In this document: positions 1 to 44,849 of the stretch, piece after piece
Numbering within the stretch: the stretch's first letter is position 1
How the letters are laid out: the number at the start of each line of letters is the position of its first letter
IMG/VR virus record: IMGVR_UViG_3300035667_000105
Coordinates: 1-53,931 of that record
Length of the DNA: 53,931 nt
Origin: a virus
Taxonomy: Duplodnaviria; Caudoviricetes
Strand: one strand, 5' to 3'
Translations under genes and position numbers: made by a program
Notes under the pieces: model-generated
What the model was told of the DNA's origin: nothing
The model's input: the letters and a program-made list of their open reading frames with translations, nothing else
The model's database searches: none

Positions 1-1281
1 TTACCCTGTTCCGCCATCGTTTTCGGCTGCGCGCCGGGCGCGCCGTTTATCGGCGATTGCATTGCCTTTGGCGCCGCGGGTCCGGATGTAGCGAATAGTC
101 GTCTCGGTGTTCGTGTGCGTGAGCCCGTCGCGGATCTCCTCGATCGTCGCGCCGGCCTCATCCGCCTCGCCAGCTCCGCCGGCGCGGGCGTCCATGTTCC
201 AGACGGCGTCGGGAATGCCGGCGGCGCGGGCAATGTCACGAAACCAGTTGCCGTAGCTGCGCGCGCGGATCGGCAGGCCGTGCTGGCCCTTTACGATCGC
301 GCCGGTGCGTTAATCGTACGGGACGCTCTCAAGCAGGGGATGCAAGAGCGAGTAACGCGTGAGATCGAAGTCGTTGCCGGCCTTATATTTCGACTTCGAG
401 GTCTTCATATGCCAACGCCAGCCGGCGAGCCGTTCCCAGGTAAAGAAACCCGCCCACTGTTCGGTCGGCTTCACCGCCGGCAGATCCAGCGTCACGATGC
501 CCGCAGGCAGCTTGCGCTTGGCGCCGATCGGTGCCCATTCGCCGATGATGTCCATCTGGCGCAGCATCATCTCGAATTGAGCAGCAACGCCGATCGACAT
601 CATCCGTGCGCGCTCAACAGGAATGACGCCTTTGCGGCTCAATTCGAACGCGTTCCGGATGAACGCGGTGGCGTGCTGATAGGTGAGTTCTTCTTGGCGC
701 GCGCCGCCCTTCTCGAACTTGATCTTGGAGATGCGTTCGGCGAGCTTCTCGCAATCCTTGTGACCCAACGCCGCCATGAAATAGATCACGGTGCGCACCA
801 TGCTGACGGTGTCATGGGCGCGATCAATGCGCTCGGGTCCCCCCTCGAAAGCTGGCTGGCGCCAGCTCTTGTACCATTTGTTTTTTATATCGAGCACGGT
901 GACGTTGCGGATTAGCCTGGCCCCGACAGTCAACTCGATTCGACGCAGGGACTTGAGATAGAAAACCTGCGTCGTGAATTTTACCGTGTGGAAATCCGAA
1001 AGCGGATGTTCCTGATAGATCTTGCTGGCGGTCAGCATGGTGCCATCGTAACGAGTTTTGGTGAGTTGAGGCTCGGCCGCGCCGTTCGCGATGTGCTCTC
1101 GCAGTTCGGCGGTATGATCCTGGCAAAGCCGCGCGAGTTCATCGTCGGTCGCGCCCGGAGGCAACGGCCGCAAGGGATCGGGGAAGTCCATTGGAACGTC
1201 CCGCCTTACCTGTTTCGCATACCAGTACGGCAGGTTGTTGCGGCCGACTTTGAAGCCCGGTTTTTTTCCGCGGGGCGGCAC
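1..1281 (-). pseudogene. int: Tyrosine integrase interrupted by an in-frame TAA at 310-312
   Basis: ORFs 310..1398 and 1..195 share a frame. Reading through gives ...ESVPYD*RTGAIVKGQHGLPIRARSYGNWFRDIARAAGIPDAVWNMDARAGG...THTN...RYIR, with catalytic-type R (MLRQ), K (KTSK), R (MDAR), H and Y. GTG start at 1281 follows a GGAG SD. Confidence 0.88.
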
Positions 1282-1552
1282 CGAAGTTCTCCAGTCCGTC
1301 CTGGACATCAGCGGGGACACCGTCATCTGCTCCAACCCTGTTGTCATTGTCCAGCCAGCGCCGGACGCTTGGCCAATAAAAGCCGTTCCATTCATCACGA
1401 AACGGTGGAAAACCGCTTCTGTCGATCTTGCCGCGGATCAGCGCGCGGAATCGATCGCGGCCGAGTTTGGGCGAGACGAGGTCGTTGAGCTCGTCCCATC
1501 CCACGTAGAGACCGCCCGATTCGCCGGTGGATTTGGAGAGTAGCTCGGTCAT
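1139..1552 (-). CDS. Excisionase-like DNA-binding protein
   Basis: Directly upstream of and overlapping int; GFPPFRDEWNGFYWPSVRRWLD resembles Xis/AlpA-like winged helix. Confidence 0.6.
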   Translation of the reverse strand: MTELLSKSTGESGGLYVGWDELNDLVSPKLGRDRFRALIRGKIDRSGFPPFRDEWNGFYWPSVRRWLDNDNRVGADDGVPADVQDGLENFGAAPRKKTGLQSRPQQPAVLVCETGKAGRSNGLPRSLAAVASGRDRR

Positions 1553-3194: not shown

Positions 3195-3436
3195 GGCGTG
3201 ATCGCGCCGCGGTCGTAATCGAGGCAGTACTGCGCGCGGCGCAGATAGACGTGGTGTTCGTGGACGAAGCCGAAATGCGGCTCGTCATTGTCCGGAATGG
3301 CAATGTCGCCAGGCCGGGCAGGGCGCACGAACCAGCGGTCGGCATCGAGGCTCCAGCCCGCCGGCGCGTTGTCGTTACCTGGCGGCGCATCGAGGTTCCT
3401 CGCCATCGCAGCGACGGGATCGGAATCGGTGCTCAT
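3179..3436 (-). CDS. Hypothetical protein
   Basis: ATGA-coupled start MSTDSD. Confidence 0.5.
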   Translation of the reverse strand: MSTDSDPVAAMARNLDAPPGNDNAPAGWSLDADRWFVRPARPGDIAIPDNDEPHFGFVHEHHVYLRRAQYCLDYDRGAITPWDRR

Positions 3437-3927
3437 GACGCCGCCGCTCCCGCTTCTGTGGGCGCCCAACCAAGTCCGCGCAACTCCGTCTCGACCGCCT
3501 GCAGCCGGTCGGGGGTTTGGCCGTCGCGGAACGCGCCGTTGCCAAAGCCGTTCAGCAATTCGTTGCGTTCGTTTTCGAGATTTTCGCGCCGCAGGTCCGC
3601 GCGCTTGGTGACAGCCTCGGCGATGACGAACAGGCCGGGCAAATGCGACAGTACGCAGGATTCGCAGACTAGCACCTGGTGCGGGCCGTAGACCGCCTTG
3701 GCGAGGTCAGCGTCGGGGCCCATCGCCCGGGCGAGCGCGGGCGAACCGAGCATGAGTTCGAACCCGTGCTGGCGCTGGACCGATGCAACGTCGATCGCGA
3801 AGCGCTGCATTCGAAGCCGCCAGAACAGCGGATAGTTGCCGTGCCCGACGCCATTGTCGCACAACGCGCACGGCTGCAGCTCGCGCTGCTTGATGCCGGG
3901 GAGCTTGTCGATATCGCCCCGGGTCAT
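3433..3927 (-). CDS. Hypothetical protein with two CxxC motifs
   Basis: PCALC ... VCESC; coupled. Confidence 0.65.
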   Translation of the reverse strand: MTRGDIDKLPGIKQRELQPCALCDNGVGHGNYPLFWRLRMQRFAIDVASVQRQHGFELMLGSPALARAMGPDADLAKAVYGPHQVLVCESCVLSHLPGLFVIAEAVTKRADLRRENLENERNELLNGFGNGAFRDGQTPDRLQAVETELRGLGWAPTEAGAAAS

Positions 3928-5099: not shown

Positions 5100-5380
5100 A
5101 GCCAATCGAGGGTTACGCCGGGAAGTCGTTGCACGATCTTGAAGGCGGCCTGCCGGCTTAGCGCCCCGCCATTTTCGAACGTACTCAATGTGGTCACTGG
5201 AATGCCCAGGAAGACTGCAAACGCTGTCGTTGTGCCAAAATCATAGGCCACGCGAAGGCGTATCAAGCGATCGCCTTGACCCGGTATTTCCTCTATTCGT
5301 GTCGGCTTTTTTGCCGGTCGACCCTTCTTCGCCATGGGGTGGGAGGGTGCCGCGTCGGCAGATTCGGCACCATTGAACAT
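5015..5380 (-). CDS. CI-like XRE-family HTH repressor without a peptidase domain
   Basis: RLIRLRVAY..TTTAFAVFLGIPVTTLSTFENG..GVTLDWLYFG HTH; divergent from Cro-like gene. Confidence 0.85.
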   Translation of the reverse strand: MFNGAESADAAPSHPMAKKGRPAKKPTRIEEIPGQGDRLIRLRVAYDFGTTTAFAVFLGIPVTTLSTFENGGALSRQAAFKIVQRLPGVTLDWLYFGKAEGLPLDVLRRLGLLPSDGKNKS

Positions 5381-35043: not shown

Positions 35044-36444
35044 CTAGCTTTCGGAAAGTTCGGTACGCGCGGGCGGGTGCGGATCCTGCACGAATGCGCT
35101 CTGGTCTTTCATCACGTAAGGCGCGATCGCGGACTTCTCGGCATTTGCAGCACCAGGATCGGGCGGCGCGCCGCCGGCGGGCCGGCCGGCACCGTCAGGC
35201 GCGGTGCCGCTCATGTCGGAGCCGGAGGAGGCGAGGTTGACCGGGGTCAGCAGCACGTCGCCGCCAGCCAGCGGCGGGTCGCCGTTTTCGGCGCGGCATT
35301 CATTCTGGGTCGATATCCCGGACATGATCTTGAGCCGCTGGTTATTTATGCGCGCGGCCTCGGAGGGATGCAGCAGCTCGCGCTCGTTGAGATCGGTAGT
35401 CAGGCCGTCGGCTTCGAGATTAAAGGTCTGGTTGAATTTCTGCTGGATGGCTTCCAGATCAGGCTTCACCGTGGTGTTGACGTAGTCGACCTGGGCGTCA
35501 TCCATCTTGATGCGGGCGAGTTCGGCGGTGACCGCCAGTTTCCACAGCGGCACGCCCATCCAGCGTGCGCATTCCTCGACCGACAATTTGCGCTGCTCGA
35601 TGAACTGCATGTCCACCGACGTCAGCTGCAGCGCTTCCCACTCCAGGCCTTCCTCGAGCAGGATAGTGCGGCCGACGTTTTCGACGCCGGCACGGATTTC
35701 TTCCCACTGCGCCTTGAGCCGTTTCGCGGCGTCTTCCGATATAAGTCCTTTGTGTTTAAGTACGCCGCCAGGACGGGCGCCATTGCCGATCAGGCGGGCA
35801 GTCTGCTGCTCGAGCCCCAGCGCCACGCCGATCGAATCCTGGGCGAGCCCGATCGTGGGCATGCCGAACAGCATGTTGAAAGACAATCCGCGCAGGTGCA
35901 GCATGTCCTCGGCCGGGATCGCCATGGGCAGATCCTTCAGCGCGAACATCTGGAACAGGCCGATGCGGCTGGTCTGGTAGAAGATCATCCCGTTCGATGC
36001 TTCCAGCACCGTAACGCCGTCCGGGTTGATCGGGATCAGGTTGATCGGGTTGCCGCGGCGATCGCGCAGGATCGCCGCATAGGCGTTCTGGCGCAGGATA
36101 TGGGCCGCCTCCATCTGGCCGGCGAATTCAAACCAGGTCTGCATCCAGTTCGGCCGCTTGAACAGCTTTGCCACCGGGTGGCTAGTGTTAGGTTTGCCGC
36201 TGCGCGGCGCACCGATCGGCATCACCCGCGGCGTGCAGCGCGCCACGTCGTTGGACCGGATCATGGTGCAGCGATAGATTACCGACGACGCCAACGCACT
36301 GGCTTGGTTGATGACGAGGCCGCTGGCGGACCTGCTAGCGCCGAGCAGGGGGAGGAAACCGCCTCCGCCTTGCGCAGCAATGCCGGTATCGGATTTGATG
36401 TGCGGCGCGGACATGCTGCGCGACATCGTCGTCAGGAGAGACAT
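35044..36444 (-). CDS. Portal protein (HK97 family)
   Basis: RPNWMQT..NAYA..LHLRG..NGARPGGVL..NECRA. Confidence 0.95.
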   Translation of the reverse strand: MSLLTTMSRSMSAPHIKSDTGIAAQGGGGFLPLLGASRSASGLVINQASALASSVIYRCTMIRSNDVARCTPRVMPIGAPRSGKPNTSHPVAKLFKRPNWMQTWFEFAGQMEAAHILRQNAYAAILRDRRGNPINLIPINPDGVTVLEASNGMIFYQTSRIGLFQMFALKDLPMAIPAEDMLHLRGLSFNMLFGMPTIGLAQDSIGVALGLEQQTARLIGNGARPGGVLKHKGLISEDAAKRLKAQWEEIRAGVENVGRTILLEEGLEWEALQLTSVDMQFIEQRKLSVEECARWMGVPLWKLAVTAELARIKMDDAQVDYVNTTVKPDLEAIQQKFNQTFNLEADGLTTDLNERELLHPSEAARINNQRLKIMSGISTQNECRAENGDPPLAGGDVLLTPVNLASSGSDMSGTAPDGAGRPAGGAPPDPGAANAEKSAIAPYVMKDQSAFVQDPHPPARTELSES

Positions 36445-36716: not shown

Positions 36717-38627
36717 CTACAGTACCAGCAGGCCGCGACGTTCGTAGACCGACTTGCCGCTGTGGTGTTTGAAGGTGGCGGCGCCGACACCCATGCAGAT
36801 GGTCACCAGGCCGTCGATCGGTCCGCGCGAGCGGTTCTTTTCAAAGCAACGGTTGTTCTGGCCGTCGGCGAGCACATAGGCATTGCCGGCGCAGAAATAG
36901 GTGACCGGCGAATGCTCGATGGTGATGCCGCCGTTGAGGACGCGGTCCTCGAGCCGCTCGATCGAGCGCGGCATGCACAGCCGCTCGATCGGCTTCTTGT
37001 CGGCATCCAGTTCCTTGTAGAACAGGACCTTGTTGCCTTGTCCGTGCGAAGCCATCATCAGGCCGGAACCAGGCTGAGTGTCCGGACCTTCCCAGAGCCA
37101 CACCGGAAAACCGATGTCGCCGCAGGCTTGCATGAAGTCGCCGATCTTTGCGGGATCGAAGACCAGGAACTGGACGTCGAACTCCTGATCCAGCTTCTGC
37201 ACCTGGGCGGCGACGAAGGTGTAATCGATCACCGGGCCGTCGACGTCGATAAGATGCTTTTCCTCCACCCACTTTTCATAGGGCGCGTTGGCCTTCTTGG
37301 CGCGATCGGCAAGGCCCGACTTCGTGGTCCAGTACCAGGTCTTGGCCCAGAGGTGCCCTTTTTCGTCAATCCATACCGCGGTCAGCGCCGTGAGGTCGTT
37401 CTTCTTCGACAGATCCAGCGAAAGCCAGCAGCGGCATTTCTTCAGGGCAGGGAGGTCGACCTTGCCCTGGACCGCCGCCCAGGCTTCTTCGGCAATCCAG
37501 AAATCGACCGAGCCGAGCGGAATCCCGAAATATAGCCGCTTCACCGACATCGCGGTGGAGATCAGCTCTTTAGCGCTTCTGACCCGGCCGCGGATGTTCT
37601 CGATAGGGAAGGTGATGCCTAGCGCTGGCAGCGCTTTGATCCAGCAGGCCTCGTTGTCAAAAACTGTCTCGCGATCCTTCTTGTCGACGCGGGCAATATA
37701 AGCAAAAGCCTCGTCGTCCTCGACATCGCCCTTCGCTACCTTTTGGTAAAACTCCGAGAGCTCGGTGCCGACGATTTGCGTCGAGGCAGGCGTGTTCGTA
37801 CCCAGCAACATCAGCGCATCGCCCGGTTGCTTGACGACCGCTTCCTCCCAGGTCTTGATCGGGGCAACGTCCTTGAACTCGTGGATTTCGTCGGCCGCCA
37901 CCACGATCGGCCGAGGCCCAGATTTGGCGGGGCCGTTGGCCAGTGCCTTGAACTTTGATTGCGTGGCCGGGCGTTCAATCTGCCAAGCGAGATCTCCCTC
38001 ACCGCGAATCACCACCTCGCCGCGGCCTTCTAGGGTATCGGTGTCATCCTCCAACGTACCCGGAATGTTGGCCCGGCACATGCCGACTGCGTCCTTGAAC
38101 AGCACGTTCGATGTGGCCTTGTCCTGGCCGATCGAATAGGCCTCAGCGCGCTTCACGCCGTACCAGCCCATCAGGTAGAGACAGATGCCACCCATCAGCG
38201 GCGACTTGGCCTGGCCTTTGCCGGTCTCGATATAGCCGCAGCGGAAGCGCAGACGGCCCGAGGCGAGCAGCCAGCCAAAGAGAGAGCCGACCGTGAACAT
38301 ATGCCAGGGCAGCAGCTCGAACGGCTGGCCGGCCTTGGCGCCGGCAGTGATGGAGAGCACAGCCGGAAAGAATTCGAGTGCGCGGAAGGCCTTCATCTCG
38401 GGGCGCCAGAACAGGCCGCGCTTCTCGCCGTCGATGATGTCCTTTAGATGCCGTTCGCCGGCAGCGATCGCGAGCTCGCCGGCGACGATCCGGGCGTGCA
38501 GCATGTCCAGCGCATAGCGGGTGACCGGATCGTCAGGATACCGATCGGAGGTGATCCGGTTTAGGTTTGGAGAGGAAAGCGTCGGCCCGGCTGGTGCGGG
38601 TTTGTTTGCGCTCGACCTTTCCGCCAT
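36717..38627 (-). CDS. terL: Terminase large subunit
   Basis: Walker A-like GKGQAKS, Walker B VAADEIHE, LDLSKKNDLTA, IDGLV. Confidence 0.95.
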   Translation of the reverse strand: MAERSSANKPAPAGPTLSSPNLNRITSDRYPDDPVTRYALDMLHARIVAGELAIAAGERHLKDIIDGEKRGLFWRPEMKAFRALEFFPAVLSITAGAKAGQPFELLPWHMFTVGSLFGWLLASGRLRFRCGYIETGKGQAKSPLMGGICLYLMGWYGVKRAEAYSIGQDKATSNVLFKDAVGMCRANIPGTLEDDTDTLEGRGEVVIRGEGDLAWQIERPATQSKFKALANGPAKSGPRPIVVAADEIHEFKDVAPIKTWEEAVVKQPGDALMLLGTNTPASTQIVGTELSEFYQKVAKGDVEDDEAFAYIARVDKKDRETVFDNEACWIKALPALGITFPIENIRGRVRSAKELISTAMSVKRLYFGIPLGSVDFWIAEEAWAAVQGKVDLPALKKCRCWLSLDLSKKNDLTALTAVWIDEKGHLWAKTWYWTTKSGLADRAKKANAPYEKWVEEKHLIDVDGPVIDYTFVAAQVQKLDQEFDVQFLVFDPAKIGDFMQACGDIGFPVWLWEGPDTQPGSGLMMASHGQGNKVLFYKELDADKKPIERLCMPRSIERLEDRVLNGGITIEHSPVTYFCAGNAYVLADGQNNRCFEKNRSRGPIDGLVTICMGVGAATFKHHSGKSVYERRGLLVL

Positions 38628-38982
38628 TGTTACGCCGCCGCGGACTGATGGCGAGCTCGGCCTCGAGCGTCGCCGCGGCCTCGGCCGCCTGCTTCAGAAT
38701 GCTCCATGCCGGGTGAACCATCGGCACTTTGGTTTTCTTGGCTTTACGGATCACGCCACTCATGCCGATGGTGCGGGACTGCCGCTCGCATTCGACCTGG
38801 AAGATCACATAGCGCTTGATCGCCGGACCGTTGACGATCGACAGCGTGTTCGCCGCGGTCATCTCGGCGACGACGTCGCTCCACAGCTGATGCGCGAATT
38901 CGCGATCGACCTTGGTCCGGTAGAGCTTGGCCCAGTCCGGCTCGGCCGGTGCTGCGCTGCTGCCAGGATTGATTTCAGCCAT
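38533..38982 (-). CDS. terS: Terminase small subunit (P27 family)
   Basis: HPAWSI..ELAISPRRR. Confidence 0.85.
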   Translation of the reverse strand: MAEINPGSSAAPAEPDWAKLYRTKVDREFAHQLWSDVVAEMTAANTLSIVNGPAIKRYVIFQVECERQSRTIGMSGVIRKAKKTKVPMVHPAWSILKQAAEAAATLEAELAISPRRRNNGGKVERKQTRTSRADAFLSKPKPDHLRSVS

Positions 38983-39083: not shown

Positions 39084-39434
39084 TTATGCGCGTTTGTTTG
39101 CATTCCACGGATGATCGCTGGCGATCGGCCGTCCGTTATCGTCACAACCAACCTCGAAGCCTCGCACCTCGATGGCTTGCTCGATGATGTCGTGGCATGG
39201 CTTGCAGTCGGATAGGAGTCTGCCGTACCAGAACAACTTCGGGTTGCCGTTATGTTTCTTGACGTGATGGACGACAGTTGCTGGTACCGTCAGGCCGCGC
39301 TCTTTGCAGCGCTGGCAGTTCGGTTCGGCCTCGAGCTGGGCTGTGCGCCGGCGCTTCCATCTGGCTAACGAGTACCACTTACGCCACGGCTTCTCGGCTC
39401 GGCGATGGGCGTCGTATGCCCGGTCCCCCGTCAC
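39084..39434 (-). CDS. Packaging-associated HNH endonuclease
   Basis: EPNCQRC..VVHHVKKH..CKPCHD..DHPW; directly upstream of terS. Confidence 0.85.
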   Translation of the reverse strand: MTGDRAYDAHRRAEKPWRKWYSLARWKRRRTAQLEAEPNCQRCKERGLTVPATVVHHVKKHNGNPKLFWYGRLLSDCKPCHDIIEQAIEVRGFEVGCDDNGRPIASDHPWNANKRA

Positions 39435-39637
39435 GGCGTGTGCAGAATGGCGTCGACGTAGCCGTTGAGAACCACAGCCCTGACGATCGTGGCTGTTAGT
39501 CTGTCCGGATGCTGGCCCAGACGATCTGCCTCGAGCAGAAGCTGTTGATATTCGGGCGACGTCAACCACGCATGCGCGACGCTGTTGCGCGGCGGCGAAA
39601 GCTTCGGTGCAGCAGCTGCAGGCTGGGCTTGCGTCAT
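39431..39637 (-). CDS. Hypothetical protein
   Basis: GAGGAG SD; coupled to the HNH gene. Confidence 0.55.
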   Translation of the reverse strand: MTQAQPAAAAPKLSPPRNSVAHAWLTSPEYQQLLLEADRLGQHPDRLTATIVRAVVLNGYVDAILHTP

Positions 39638-39654
39638 GCGCTCCTCGCAATGAG

Positions 39655-39706: not shown

Positions 39707-39820
39707 TCAGCGCTTGGTGGTGCGCTTGGTTGCTGACGACCTTCGCGCCGTGGACTTTGCCGGACGTTTCGCCATCTTCATCTTGGCGGCCGGCTTGCGT
39801 TTCGTTGTGCTCGTGGCCAT
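39707..39820 (-). CDS. 37-aa very basic histone-tail-like peptide (copy 1)
   Basis: MATSTTKRKPAAKMKMAKRPAKSTARRSSATKRTTKR; AGGAG SD. Confidence 0.6.
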   Translation of the reverse strand: MATSTTKRKPAAKMKMAKRPAKSTARRSSATKRTTKR

Positions 39821-39878
39821 GCTGGCTCCTGTGTCAACGCAGGCAAATCACCTGCAGCACAGAGAGAATCACGGTCGA
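39745..39878. repeat. Direct repeat copy 1 (53-bp identical core 39826-39878)
   Basis: CTCCTGTGTCAACGCAGGCAAATCACCTGCAGCACAGAGAGAATCACGGTCGA, also at 40251-40303. Confidence 0.95.
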
Positions 39879-39908
39879 CTCGGTCGATCAAGAGTCGGGA
39901 GCGCACGA

Positions 39909-40163
39909 ATGGTAGACGTTGAAGCAATCCGCAGAATACACGAAGCGCGGCTAACGATAGCCAAAGCCTCCCAGATTGATTACGCGGATGGCATCCAATG
40001 CATGGTGGACTGCACCGAGCTACTGCAAGAGATCGCTCGGCTCAATAACGAGGTGGCCGATCTGAACGGGTTGATCGCTGCATACCGCAAATGGGCGCGC
40101 GAGTGTCCGATCTTGGAGATGCCGGGCGTGATTACCTTGGGAAATACCGAACAGGCCTGCTGA
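39909..40163 (+). CDS. Hypothetical coiled-coil protein (cargo 1)
   Basis: GGGAG SD; MVDVEAIRRIHEAR. Confidence 0.55.
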   Translation: MVDVEAIRRIHEARLTIAKASQIDYADGIQCMVDCTELLQEIARLNNEVADLNGLIAAYRKWARECPILEMPGVITLGNTEQAC

Positions 40164-40245
40164 CGTCCTGCGCGCCGTGGAACTTGGCCGGACGTTTCGC
40201 CTTCATGTTGGCGACCGGCTTGCGTTTGGTAGTGCTCGTGGCCAT
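40132..40245 (-). CDS. 37-aa basic peptide (copy 2, diverged C-terminus)
   Basis: MATSTTKRKPVANMKAKRPAKFHGAQDVSRPVRYFPR; AGGAG SD. Confidence 0.45.
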   Translation of the reverse strand: MATSTTKRKPVANMKAKRPAKFHGAQDVSRPVRYFPR

Positions 40246-40303
40246 GGTCTCTCCTGTGTCAACGCAGGCAAATCACCTGCAGCACAGAGAGAATCACGGT
40301 CGA
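40171..40303. repeat. Direct repeat copy 2
   Basis: See copy 1. Confidence 0.95.
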
Positions 40304-40330
40304 TTCGGCGACGCAAGATGGAGATGCTCG

Positions 40331-40666
40331 ATGCCGTTGGTGAACTTGAGTGACGACGATATTTTTACGCTGCGGGCGGCGGTTGAAAATCTTCGTTCTC
40401 CGGACAAGGCGCAAGAGCGAACCATCGAAGCCGCATGGCGCATTGCCTCCAAGCTTGAAGCGATAACGGCCCGGACATCGGCAGCGGGGCCGGCATTGAA
40501 AGACAGACTGCTAGGAGTTGCGCTTTTGTCGCTGATAGCCGGCGCAATCTTCGGTCTCGTAGCAGCGCACATAGGGACTGCGATGTCTCTCGCAAGCACA
40601 ATCGGCGCTTTCCTTGCCATTGCCCTGGTGTGGCGGGTCTTGTTTACAAAGGCTGGTGTCCGATAA
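40331..40666 (+). CDS. Two-TM hypothetical protein (cargo 2)
   Basis: GGAG SD; two C-terminal TMs; stop codon lies inside the lox-like arm. Confidence 0.55.
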   Translation: MPLVNLSDDDIFTLRAAVENLRSPDKAQERTIEAAWRIASKLEAITARTSAAGPALKDRLLGVALLSLIAGAIFGLVAAHIGTAMSLASTIGAFLAIALVWRVLFTKAGVR

Positions 40667-40686
40667 CGGCGGTTATCGGACACCAG
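40653..40686. other. 34-bp lox-like recombination site
   Basis: CTGGTGTCCGATA-ACGGCGGT-TATCGGACACCAG; perfect 13-bp arms; about 250 bp from a Cre-like recombinase. Confidence 0.75.
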
Positions 40687-40774
40687 ACCTATGCCAAGGC
40701 CGTCCCGATCATGGCGTTGCCAAGCTCGCCAAGAGGTTTAGGGTGGTGGCCCTACCACTTAAGGGAGAGACAAA

Positions 40775-40933
40775 ATGGCTGTCGGACCGAACAATCCAGC
40801 TGAAGGCGACAAAAGAGTGAACCAAGGCAACGACCAGAAAGATAACAAGAGAGCGCACGGAGGCGGCGAATCCGATGCGGACAAGATCGGAAAGGGTATC
40901 GACGCGGTCGATAAGATAAACAAGGGCAAGTAG
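40775..40933 (+). CDS. 52-aa hydrophilic peptide (not in ORF track)
   Basis: AAGGGAGA SD; MAVGPNNPAEGDKRVNQGNDQKDNK..DKINKGK. Confidence 0.5.
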   Translation: MAVGPNNPAEGDKRVNQGNDQKDNKRAHGGGESDADKIGKGIDAVDKINKGK

Positions 40934-40939
40934 ACCCGG

Positions 40940-41866
40940 TCAAAGAAAATCCCCGCCGGCGTGGGTGTCGAAGTCGTTCTCGCGCCGGTCGTATTCCTTC
41001 AACGTGTCGACCTTCACGTGGCAGGTGATCGGCATGATCTTGAGCGGGTCGACGCCGGCATCGAGCGCCGAGGTGACGAAGCCGGCACGCAGCGAGTGTC
41101 CTGAGAAAACCTTCGCATCGATGCCGGCGGCCGCCACGGCGCGTTTGACGATGCGGGCGACGTCGCGATCGGAAAGCCGCTGCTCGAGCAGCGCGCCGGA
41201 TCGGTGCACCGATCGGAAAATCGGGCCTTCAGTGATCCCGGAGGCGTTCAGCCAGGCTTCGAGCGCGTCGACCGGCCGCAGCGCATTGCCGCGCGGCACG
41301 GGAATAAACGCGCCCTTGCCCTCCTGGTCCGTCTTGGACCGACGTTTATGCAATACCACGCCCTTGCGGCGCCATTCGATGTCCGGAACATCCAGGGCGA
41401 CCAGCTCGGAGCGGCGGAGCGCCGCGGCGAACCCCATCAGTACGATGGCGCGATCGCGGTGGCCTGCGAGCGTGTTCGGAAACACCGCCTGCAGCTTGGT
41501 GATGATCTCGGCCGTCGCCGGCGCCTTCTTGGTCGGTCTGGTGCCAAGCGTGCGCCGGATCCCGCGCATCGTCGCCTTGACGCCTTCGGCGTTGGTTGGC
41601 GGCTCTTTGTTGGCGGCCAGGTGAGCCGCCCGGATTGACGCCACGTGTCGCTGAATGGTTGCGGCCTTCAGCCCGCGATCGGCGAGCTGGGCCAGATAGC
41701 GGGCCACCGCGATGGGCTCCGCCGGCATACTGTTCAGACTTACAGTATCGCACCAGGCGCAGAAGTCGGCCCAATCCGATTTGTAGGCGCGCCGGGTGCC
41801 GACAGCTTTTTCGGCCTCGATATAGGCGCGGACCGATGCTCGCGGGTCGACGAGTTCGGTGGGCAT
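40940..41866 (-). CDS. Cre-like tyrosine recombinase (intact)
   Basis: TRRAYKSDW..F.AWC N-terminus; RDRA..GFAAALRRSEL, RSKTDQ, SGHSLRAGF, H(TCH), Y(KEY). Confidence 0.9.
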   Translation of the reverse strand: MPTELVDPRASVRAYIEAEKAVGTRRAYKSDWADFCAWCDTVSLNSMPAEPIAVARYLAQLADRGLKAATIQRHVASIRAAHLAANKEPPTNAEGVKATMRGIRRTLGTRPTKKAPATAEIITKLQAVFPNTLAGHRDRAIVLMGFAAALRRSELVALDVPDIEWRRKGVVLHKRRSKTDQEGKGAFIPVPRGNALRPVDALEAWLNASGITEGPIFRSVHRSGALLEQRLSDRDVARIVKRAVAAAGIDAKVFSGHSLRAGFVTSALDAGVDPLKIMPITCHVKVDTLKEYDRRENDFDTHAGGDFL

Positions 41867-41915: not shown

Positions 41916-41943
41916 TTGCGTTTGTACACTTTTAGTGTACACT
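41916..41943 (+). promoter_or_regulatory. Sigma70-like promoter containing a palindromic operator
   Basis: TTGCGT-N16-TACACT overlapping TGTACAC-TTTTA-GTGTACA. Confidence 0.6.
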
Positions 41944-41993: not shown

Positions 41994-42284
41994 ATGTTTA
42001 ACTTCTTCTCCAAATCGAACCCGCTCAAAGAAGTGCAGTTGCTTCGCGACAAGGCCGAACGGATCGGGCTTGCCTATCTCGAGGAACTGGCAGTGAACGG
42101 GAAAATCACCCGCCCGCTGATCATTCAGATGGCTCGCACGATGAACGAGCATCCGGATGAAATCATTGAGCGGATTCCGGATCGTCGTCGCCCCTCGCGT
42201 TATGAGAAGGCGATGGCGGGTCTGCGGGCAGCCAATCTGGTTGGCGAACGTCAGACGTTCCACGAGCAATTCGATAATAACTAA
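41994..42284 (+). CDS. Hypothetical 96-aa protein
   Basis: AAAGGA SD. Confidence 0.65.
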   Translation: MFNFFSKSNPLKEVQLLRDKAERIGLAYLEELAVNGKITRPLIIQMARTMNEHPDEIIERIPDRRRPSRYEKAMAGLRAANLVGERQTFHEQFDNN

Positions 42285-44038: not shown

Positions 44039-44635
44039 TTATTCGGCCGCGGGCAGGATGTGATCCAGGTCCACTTCAATGACGTCGCGGCCGAACAGTG
44101 TCGTCCCCGCGAGCCGCACCTTGACATGCCCGCGCGCGTCTATGGTGTGGACCTTGGCGCGCATGCGAACGAACCCCACGGTGACGTCGACCTCTTCGCC
44201 GATCATGAACCGGCTGTCGCCGCATCCGCCGAGCCGTTGCCGACGCAGCTGCTCGATGCGGCGCTCTTCGGCCGCCACCCGCTGGATTTCGCTGTCGGGA
44301 AGGATGGCCAGTCGGTCGTTGAGCCAAAGGAAATCCATGACGCCGGGTGTGGACCGCACCGCCTGGAACTGTTCGTCACTCAGCACGGCCGGCACGAAGA
44401 AGTAGGGCCGCAGCATGGGCTCCTCGACGTCGCGCACGCGATTGCGCCCGGCGCGGCGCTGCCGCGTGACGATCGGGATGTAGGGATCGATCTGCAGTTC
44501 GAGATCGCCGAATCGCTGGCAGGTGGCGCATTCGCGCTGGGCCTTCGCGATCACGATCAGCCAGTGGCTCGGCCGCGGCGCTGGCGGCGACGCATCGGAA
44601 ACGGCCAAGCCCTCAGCTTTTATTTCCTGCAGCAT
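44039..44635 (-). CDS. nusG: NusG-family antiterminator
   Basis: NGN domain (PMLRPYFFV..TPGVMDFL) plus KOW-like GEEVDVTVG. Confidence 0.85.
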   Translation of the reverse strand: MLQEIKAEGLAVSDASPPAPRPSHWLIVIAKAQRECATCQRFGDLELQIDPYIPIVTRQRRAGRNRVRDVEEPMLRPYFFVPAVLSDEQFQAVRSTPGVMDFLWLNDRLAILPDSEIQRVAAEERRIEQLRRQRLGGCGDSRFMIGEEVDVTVGFVRMRAKVHTIDARGHVKVRLAGTTLFGRDVIEVDLDHILPAAE

Positions 44636-44849
44636 GCGACCGGGCCTTTTCTTGTTTTTCGGTTTCGAGGCCGAGTTCGACCAACTCGCGCACCCGCTCA
44701 GCGAAACTGATTCCGGCGCGGCCGGCGCCAGCGTCGATCTGCGCGAACGTCTCCTCGTCGAAGCCGATCGGCAGGCGCCGCATTGCGGCACCGCCGGCGC
44801 AGTGGCCGCGCGCGCGGCGTGATTGGCAGTTCGTTTGCGCCGCCGTCAT
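44613..44849 (-). CDS. Ribbon-helix-helix protein, paralogue of 2072..2281
   Basis: IGFDEETFAQI..ISFAERVRELVELG. Confidence 0.65.
   Translation of the reverse strand: MTAAQTNCQSRRARGHCAGGAAMRRLPIGFDEETFAQIDAGAGRAGISFAERVRELVELGLETEKQEKARSHAAGNKS

Follow-up and report, generated by a model that had tools for sequence, protein, structure and literature searches.

A 53,931-bp provirus record of IMG/VR (IMGVR_UViG_3300035667_000105; referred to here in its full length as the window) encodes a small tyrosine recombinase, which we call REC, close to a perfect 34-bp inverted repeat. The locus raises the question of whether the two form a recombinase/target pair of the Cre/lox type, and what such a pair would do in an integrated phage with an integrase of its own. 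The window, estimated to be ~90% complete, is a tailed-phage prophage of a soil-type alphaproteobacterium. The initial annotation had interpreted the locus as a candidate new Cre/lox pair, and our analysis indicates that this interpretation was right in substance: the window contains a real Cre-like recombinase/site pair. Taking the pair and its role together, we assign a probability of about 0.75 to the reading that REC and the repeat are a genuine Cre-like recombinase and its target, most likely serving multimer resolution or cyclisation in the manner of P1 Cre/lox.

The lox-like site

The site occupies positions 40653-40686 and reads CTGGTGTCCGATA-ACGGCGGT-TATCGGACACCAG; we assign it to the SloxP class of lox-like sites. 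Its 34 bp consist of perfect 13-bp inverted arms around an asymmetric 8-bp spacer, which is ACCGCCGT when read in the orientation of the recombinase. The gap from the recombinase stop codon to the site is 253 nt, in agreement with the perfect 13-8-13 site and asymmetric core originally reported about 250 bp downstream of the gene. Because the spacer starts with AC and ends with GT, the inverted repeat extends to a perfect 15-4-15 arrangement, and the 13-8-13 and 15-4-15 descriptions are equally valid. The left arm overlaps the final codons and the TAA stop (40664-40666) of a plus-strand open reading frame (ORF) at 40331-40666, for which neither Pfam nor PHROG gave a match.

The window contains one perfect 13-8-13 inverted repeat, versus none in 30 block shuffles. 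A second copy of the site, full or degenerate, was not found in the 53.9-kb window at up to nine mismatches across the 26 arm positions, a threshold at which 100 shuffled sequences gave approximately one match each; the single full copy noticed at the outset was thus the only one detected. The site was also single-copy in all three host genomes of relatives that were checked (≤3 mismatches). Published hallmarks of active Cre-type sites are a T at arm position 7 and the sequence G(T)-A-T(G)-A beside the spacer (PMC10250229). Both are present in the window site, the latter as GATA adjoining the spacer.

Sequence, domains, and predicted fold of the recombinase

REC is encoded on the minus strand at 40940-41866 as a single open frame of 308 amino acids. 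Pfam placed a SAM-like N-terminal domain (PF02899) at residues 15-82 and the catalytic domain (PF00589) at residues 131-294, a two-domain clamp whose layout leaves no space for an arm-binding domain. The motifs RSKTDQ and GHSLRAG and the tyrosine Y292 are present, and the ORF and Pfam results agree with the intact 308-aa enzyme, carrying RSKTDQ, HSLR and Y and lacking an arm-binding domain, that the initial annotation had described. The catalytic set comprises R151, K178, H257, R260, H283, and Y292. Five of these residues, R151, K178, H257, R260, and Y292, align with R173, K201, H289, R292, and Y324 of Cre, and none of the five varies among 38 homologues, the most distant of which are 25% identical.

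A sequence search of solved structures returned Cre or Cre-derived proteins as the top 17 matches (best E 3e-14), followed by E. coli XerD (E 1e-7). The structure was modelled from an alignment of the 38 homologues, with a predicted local distance difference test (pLDDT) score of 91 and a predicted template modelling (pTM) score of 0.80; an earlier model, based on only 16 close sequences, was discarded for its poor pLDDT of 66. In a fold search with the retained model, the 22 best rows listed (ranks 1-32) were all Cre or its derivative Tre, with template modelling (TM) scores of 0.73-0.82 over ~300 columns, and the next match was an integron integrase (TM 0.66). REC fell below the curated cut-offs for both XerD (67.1 vs 329.6 bits) and XerC (61.8 vs 335.15).

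We placed REC in a tree of 41 rows, obtained by a quick IQ-TREE search, rooted on E. coli XerD, and evaluated only by the Shimodaira–Hasegawa-like approximate likelihood ratio test (SH-aLRT). Cre and SCre were included as reference enzymes, and VCre, Dre, and Vika were left out. REC grouped with homologues from phages and alphaproteobacterial plasmids in a clade of 17 rows (SH-aLRT 96), and Cre, SCre, and L046, a protein from a metagenome-assembled genome (MAG), formed a separate clade (SH-aLRT 99), in which the Cre-SCre grouping joins long branches, according to a warning of the tree program. Both clades were nested in a 35-row clade (SH-aLRT 99). The designation of REC as a Cre-type enzyme stands as far as its Cre-like sequence, its predicted fold, and the 35-row clade shared with Cre and SCre are concerned. 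It does not extend to the residue at the position of Cre W315, or to membership in the Cre/SCre clade itself, and both points are weighed below.

More than 7,900 proteins matched REC at E ≤1e-20, and at least 120 protein clusters with ~62-86% identity were among the matches listed. The named relatives among these listed matches were Bradyrhizobium species and one Rubrivivax, mostly labelled 'XerD' or 'site-specific integrase'. No close relative was found among deposited phages, where the best matches, at ~31% identity, were small 'tyrosine integrases' of Gordonia phages.

A palindrome, TGTACAC-TTTTA-GTGTACA, is located at 41923-41941, in the divergent intergenic region between the REC start and the ORF at 41994-42284, and has an operator-like appearance. 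Palindromes of the TTTGTACA type are also present near REC homologues in loci L020 and L023.

Comparison with SCre and SloxP

SCre has been experimentally shown to recombine SloxP (PMC3082901, Suzuki and Nakayama 2011), and the site printed there as SloxM1 is CTCGTGTCCGATA ACTGTAAT TATCGGACACGAG (PMC3082901). We located the natural SloxP at ~260248-260281 of Shewanella sp. ANA-3 plasmid 1 (NC_008573). The window site matches it at 12/13 positions in the left arm, 10/13 in the right arm, and 4/8 in the spacer (positions 1, 2, 4, and 8), and the sole left-arm difference is at arm position 3. Both sites belong to one class, defined by the 13-8-13 geometry and the GTGTCCGATA core. The initial annotation had given a SloxP left arm one base away from the window arm, and the printed SloxM1 and NC_008573 confirm it.

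The two enzymes are both two-domain, Cre-like tyrosine recombinases, but they are not orthologous. SCre (ABK50591, its identity fixed by accession) has 371 residues versus 308 in REC, the proteins are 28% identical (E 2.7e-14), and they fall in different clades of the tree. The position of Cre W315 is Trp in SCre and His in REC. The arrangements also differ: on its conjugative plasmid, SCre has SloxP 4.2 kb upstream, whereas the window site lies 253 nt downstream of REC in a prophage. REC is nearer (39% identity) to ABK50581, another recombinase encoded on the SCre plasmid, than to SCre.

ABK50581 was considered as the natural partner of SloxP and was rejected, since SCre is proven on SloxP and ABK50581 has its own, different repeat. 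This imperfect 13-8-13 repeat, ATAACCCACGATA ACATTCAT TATCGAAGGTTAC, is located 78 bp upstream of the annotated start (L029 2448-2481, NC_008573).

The core TGTCCGATA-N8-TATCGGACA adjoins members of at least four clades, represented by the clade of the window, the clade of L056 and L063, L046 in the Cre/SCre clade, and SCre itself. This distribution suggests that the target core is old and shared and that the bases outside it vary. Across the sequences compared, the likeness of the sites does not track the likeness of the proteins. The arms are nearly identical, so the orthogonality of REC toward SCre/SloxP, which had been raised as a prospect for engineering, is doubtful.

Association of the site with the gene in relatives

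We examined the association from both directions. In a protein-first survey of 24 IMG/VR loci encoding REC homologues, all five homologues with at least 55% identity carried a ...TCCGATA-N8-TA[TA]CGGA... 13-8-13 repeat within 1.4 kb of the gene, bearing out the co-occurrence of homologue and palindrome that had been proposed as a check on the pair. When all 24 loci were considered, six carried the same site type at ≤3 arm mismatches; among the others, one had a variant of it, two had sites with four mismatches, and two had other lox-like repeats. In the site-first scan of IMG/VR, the core was found at 12 loci, at seven of which a REC-family gene lies no more than 0.5 kb away, and the reversed core pattern, used as a control, gave no locus. 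The corresponding scan of species genomes yielded 19 loci, six of which hold a REC-family gene, in five cases within ~1.1 kb of the site. The sequence of one more genome locus, L048, ends near its site; L048 and the gene-bearing L055 appear to be one and the same contig of 22,115 bp.

An alignment of the 34 bp together with 60 bp on either side, from six phages whose REC proteins are 63-85% identical, contained 27 invariant columns. Of these, 26 fall inside the site, and the flanks were essentially unalignable. The spacer follows AC[CA]GC[CT][CG]T with a single polarity relative to the gene, and four of the six phages show an A/T asymmetry at arm position 11. In L005, both arms are changed together, from GTGT/ACAC to GCTT/AAGC, and the symmetry is kept. 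Within this alignment, the pattern of conservation is that expected of a protein-recognised recombination site, and not that of a terminator. The closest relative, L002 (85% identity), has two sites, at 2370-2403 and 5275-5308, which flank the REC gene in direct polarity, 2.9 kb apart; the spacer is AGCGCCCT in one and ACCGCCGT in the other, a difference at positions 2 and 7.

Among the plasmid homologues, which are 45-50% identical to REC, the arm is not that of the window site. Plasmid pGXY050, for example, carries a perfect 13-8-13 repeat with only the outer half in common with it (CTGGCTTCC...). The exact site thus marks the close clade, and wider sharing is limited to the core.

Several further observations concern these plasmids and the core. 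pGXY050 (L065, Komagataeibacter, 4.6 kb; recombinase 47% identical to REC) contains three perfect 13-8-13 repeats, at 3418-3451, 3815-3848, and 3861-3894, and one repeat of this plasmid, CTGGCTTCCGGGA ATGAACAT TCCCGGAAGCCAG, has its outer nine bases in common with the L005 phage site. In Methylobacterium sp. FF17 plasmid pD (L068, 34 kb, mostly hypothetical genes), a recombinase 50% identical to REC stands beside a ParA/ribbon-helix-helix pair, and a lox-like repeat different from that of the window, GTAACTTGGGATA AACGGTAT TCTCCCAAGTTTC, lies 1 kb upstream of the recombinase. pD may be a plasmid prophage that uses the REC family for dimer resolution. Two Actinomycetota and two Bacteroidaceae MAG contigs have the arm TTGGTGTCCGATA in common. 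In L041 and L042, from two Streptomyces species, and in Pseudoalteromonas, the core is part of stems of at least 20 bp, without a recombinase; recombinase-free copies of the core also occur at L037-L039 and L051.

A separate integrase at the prophage end

The window encodes a second tyrosine recombinase, a large integrase at the left prophage end (1-1398, minus strand), with 465 codons and a PF00589 fragment. Its frame is broken by one premature TAA after codon 362, which cuts off the catalytic C-terminal part. REC had been suggested as a possible substitute for this broken enzyme. The suggestion does not hold, because two relatives, G004 and G005, carry a REC-type gene together with an uninterrupted ~465-aa integrase-matching frame at the record end. 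A third, G006 (Afipia massiliensis), probably has both as well, with a weak integrase candidate ~2.5 kb outside its predicted provirus boundary. A search for serine recombinases in five relatives found none.

Evaluation of alternative explanations

A number of observations weigh against a genuine Cre-like pair. In REC, His283 occupies the position of Cre W315 and is invariant in 16 close relatives, and the tree places REC outside the Cre/SCre clade; for these two reasons, the cofactor freedom of Cre is not transferable to REC. More than half of the homologue loci (13/24, the more distant ones) have no recognisable site. On the side of the site, no recombinase was found in the examined stretch at 12 of the 19 genome loci and five of the 12 viral loci with the core. 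The 12 orphan genome loci come from unrelated phyla, and at least three of them (L041, L042, and L049) are parts of much longer hairpins. Because of these orphans, the 10-bp core alone is not diagnostic, and it is the association with the gene that counts. No other recombinase was found inside the records of G006 and G008, both at least 90% complete. The site is also located upstream of the packaging genes, which is the wrong place for first-headful terminal redundancy if packaging follows the late operon. The physical properties of the palindrome add to these points. As RNA, it is predicted to fold at -45.6 kcal/mol (z -5.1), a stability reached by none of 200 shuffles, its 15-4-15 stem is perfect, and it stands at the 3' end of the plus-strand ORF, overlapping the stop codon, as well as 253 nt past the REC stop.

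These last features would suit a palindrome that is only an RNA hairpin, acting to terminate or stabilise the transcript of ORF 40331-40666 or of REC, with the target of REC elsewhere, as would the same-core palindromes without recombinases in other genomes, some of which are clearly long hairpins. However, a U-tract is absent on both strands, the terminator scan did not call the palindrome, and Rfam returned no family above threshold. A terminator needs only a stem, yet the arm sequence itself is kept across phages with unalignable flanks, and it matches the experimentally proven recombinase site SloxP. The asymmetry at arm position 11 in four of six relatives would weaken a stem, and the 8-bp spacing is constant while the neighbouring genes vary. 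With no U-tract, no call in the scan, and conservation of sequence and not just of stem, we consider a pure terminator very unlikely; a dual role of the palindrome, as recombination site and RNA hairpin, is possible. REC might instead be an arm-less phage integrase and the palindrome a simple phage attachment site (attP), through which the phage, or a copy of it, would enter a chromosomal site resembling attP. The small Gordonia phage 'tyrosine integrases' at ~31% identity are indeed the closest matches among deposited phages, G006 and G008 show no other recombinase inside their records, and the site common to L004 and L011 resembles a hybrid junction, one of its arms being good and the other degraded. 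But in the integrated state the window site is whole, perfect, and internal, no second copy flanks the prophage, and the site is single-copy in 3/3 host genomes of relatives. Moreover, a separate ~465-aa integrase is found at the end of the window, of G004, and of G005, with the weak candidate beside G006. For the wider family, this integrase/attP explanation is a genuine contender, but for the window phage it is contradicted, and overall we judge it improbable. The least probable of the explanations considered is that the REC/site pair is an inert remnant in a prophage locked in by its broken integrase. The premature TAA in the end integrase would fit such decay, but the REC frame is intact with all the family-invariant catalytic residues, the site is perfect, and the genes scanned for packaging, portal, and replication functions have open frames that match protein families.

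Proposed role of the pair

In the reading that we favour, that of a Cre-like recombinase with its own target, a REC dimer would occupy the two 13-bp arms of the 34-bp site and would exchange strands across the asymmetric 8-bp spacer when two copies of the site meet. Integration would be handled by the larger integrase at the prophage end. With one site per phage genome and a separate integrase, a meeting of two copies would require phage DNA that is replicated, dimeric, or terminally redundant, or else the genomes of two different phages. Recombination would then convert multimers or redundant linear molecules into unit-length circles, as Cre/loxP does for P1. The presence of one copy per phage and host genome fits resolution or cyclisation, and not the inversion or excision of a segment. 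Binding, catalysis, independence of host factors, and the biological role of the REC/site pair are what we infer from the comparisons presented here.

Position before the packaging genes

The first recognised packaging gene downstream of REC encodes the terminase small subunit (38533-38982, minus strand; PF05119, E 1.8e-11). It is followed by the genes for the terminase large subunit (36717-38627, minus strand; PF03354 and PF20441) and the portal (35044-36444, minus strand; PF04860). The order of REC and then terminase genes on the same strand was found in all eight close phages (the window and seven distinct relatives). The site lies between REC and the terminase genes in six of these phages, and ~200 bp upstream of REC in the other two.

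The packaging genes that follow REC are of three sets: PF05119 with PF03354/PF20441 in the window, a lambda gpA type in L026, and a PF03592 set. In the last, a PF03592 small subunit is accompanied by a T4-like large terminase subunit in L003, L005, L055, and L062; in L004 and L011, it is accompanied by a large subunit without a Pfam match, which tblastn linked weakly to that of L062. Using the terminase proteins found here as tblastn queries, which are insensitive, we detected a terminase beside the recombinase in 6/29 loci. Because of this insensitivity, the position before the terminase genes is established for the eight close phages together with L008 and L063, and not for the whole family.

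The spacer variant Slox2272 was made by changing two spacer positions, 2 and 7, which were described as analogous to the lox2272 changes (PMC3082901). The two spacers of L002 differ at these same heterospecificity positions. A more speculative proposal, to which we give an outside chance, is that recombinases now only 25-30% identical have retained the SloxP-class site as an ancient target, and that in temperate phages of the Bradyrhizobiaceae, where this site stands at the seam between early and packaging genes, it also serves as a crossover point between phages. Recombination between lox-like sites of co-resident phage genomes would swap whole packaging and structural modules. Such swapping would explain both how the same recombinase (55-85% identity) came to be joined to three unrelated terminase sets and why L002 has two sites with spacers of this kind.

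Relation to known recombination systems

Cre/loxP serves cyclisation and dimer resolution in P1. The role proposed here for the REC pair is closest to that system, in which there is likewise one 34-bp 13-8-13 site per phage genome, near the gene, and in both phages the recombinase is accessory to, and not part of, the integration route of lysogeny. Cre is the best structural and sequence match of REC, yet the two are only ~23% identical. Further differences are that the loxP arm, as commonly quoted, shares 6/13 bases with the window arm, that loxP lies upstream of cre while the window site lies downstream of REC, that Cre W315 is replaced by His, and that P1 is a plasmid prophage whereas the window phage is integrated and has its own integrase. 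XerC and XerD resemble REC in length, in the SAM-like N-terminal domain, and in the His at the W315 position. They resolve chromosome dimers as a heterodimer acting on dif, which has an 11-6-11 geometry, whereas REC is a single prophage-encoded enzyme with a symmetric 13-8-13 site.

Pairs of a Cre-type enzyme and a lox-like site are well known. Approximately 500 candidate pairs have been mined computationally by Jelicic et al. 2023 (PMC10250229), using as criteria a palindrome with 13-15-bp arms and an 8-bp spacer, within 1 kb of a Cre homologue of 300-400 residues, and a catalytic filter that includes W315 (PMC10250229). The discovery logic is that used here, and REC lacks the filter residue W315; a close relative of REC may already be catalogued among those ~500 pairs (PMC10250229). 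What goes beyond the routine is the arm nearly identical to that of SloxP at 28% protein identity, the fixed place before three kinds of terminase, and the two sites of L002. A literature search on the role of a Cre/lox-like module before packaging genes found nothing beyond the SloxP paper itself.

With its predicted activity, the REC pair adds a natural, intact enzyme and site to the Cre-type toolbox. Two enzymes that are 28% identical appear to read nearly the same 13-bp arm, and, along with their graded relatives, SCre and REC are useful material for studying how Cre-like enzymes read DNA. The results also point to a Cre/lox-like accessory module that is common in integrated prophages of the Bradyrhizobiaceae and has a fixed place before the packaging genes.

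Neighbouring genes and repeats

Upstream of REC, a NusG-like gene (44039-44791, minus strand; PF02357) is a neighbour kept in four relatives (L002, L003, L055, and L052), as detected by tblastn. Genes for DnaB and methylases also lie upstream of REC, and an ATP-dependent ligase is encoded elsewhere in the window. Between the site and the small terminase gene, the ORF at 39084-39650 (minus strand) had no Pfam match at E 0.001; by eye, it contains Cys/His motifs like those of an HNH endonuclease and may encode one. Between the packaging genes and the lox-like site, a direct repeat of ~150 nt occurs at 39731-39883 and 40158-40308. The copies are 86-93% identical and 425-428 nt apart, and each precedes a small plus-strand ORF. 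Duplication of a promoter or leader could account for this repeat, which could alternatively belong to the packaging-site region.

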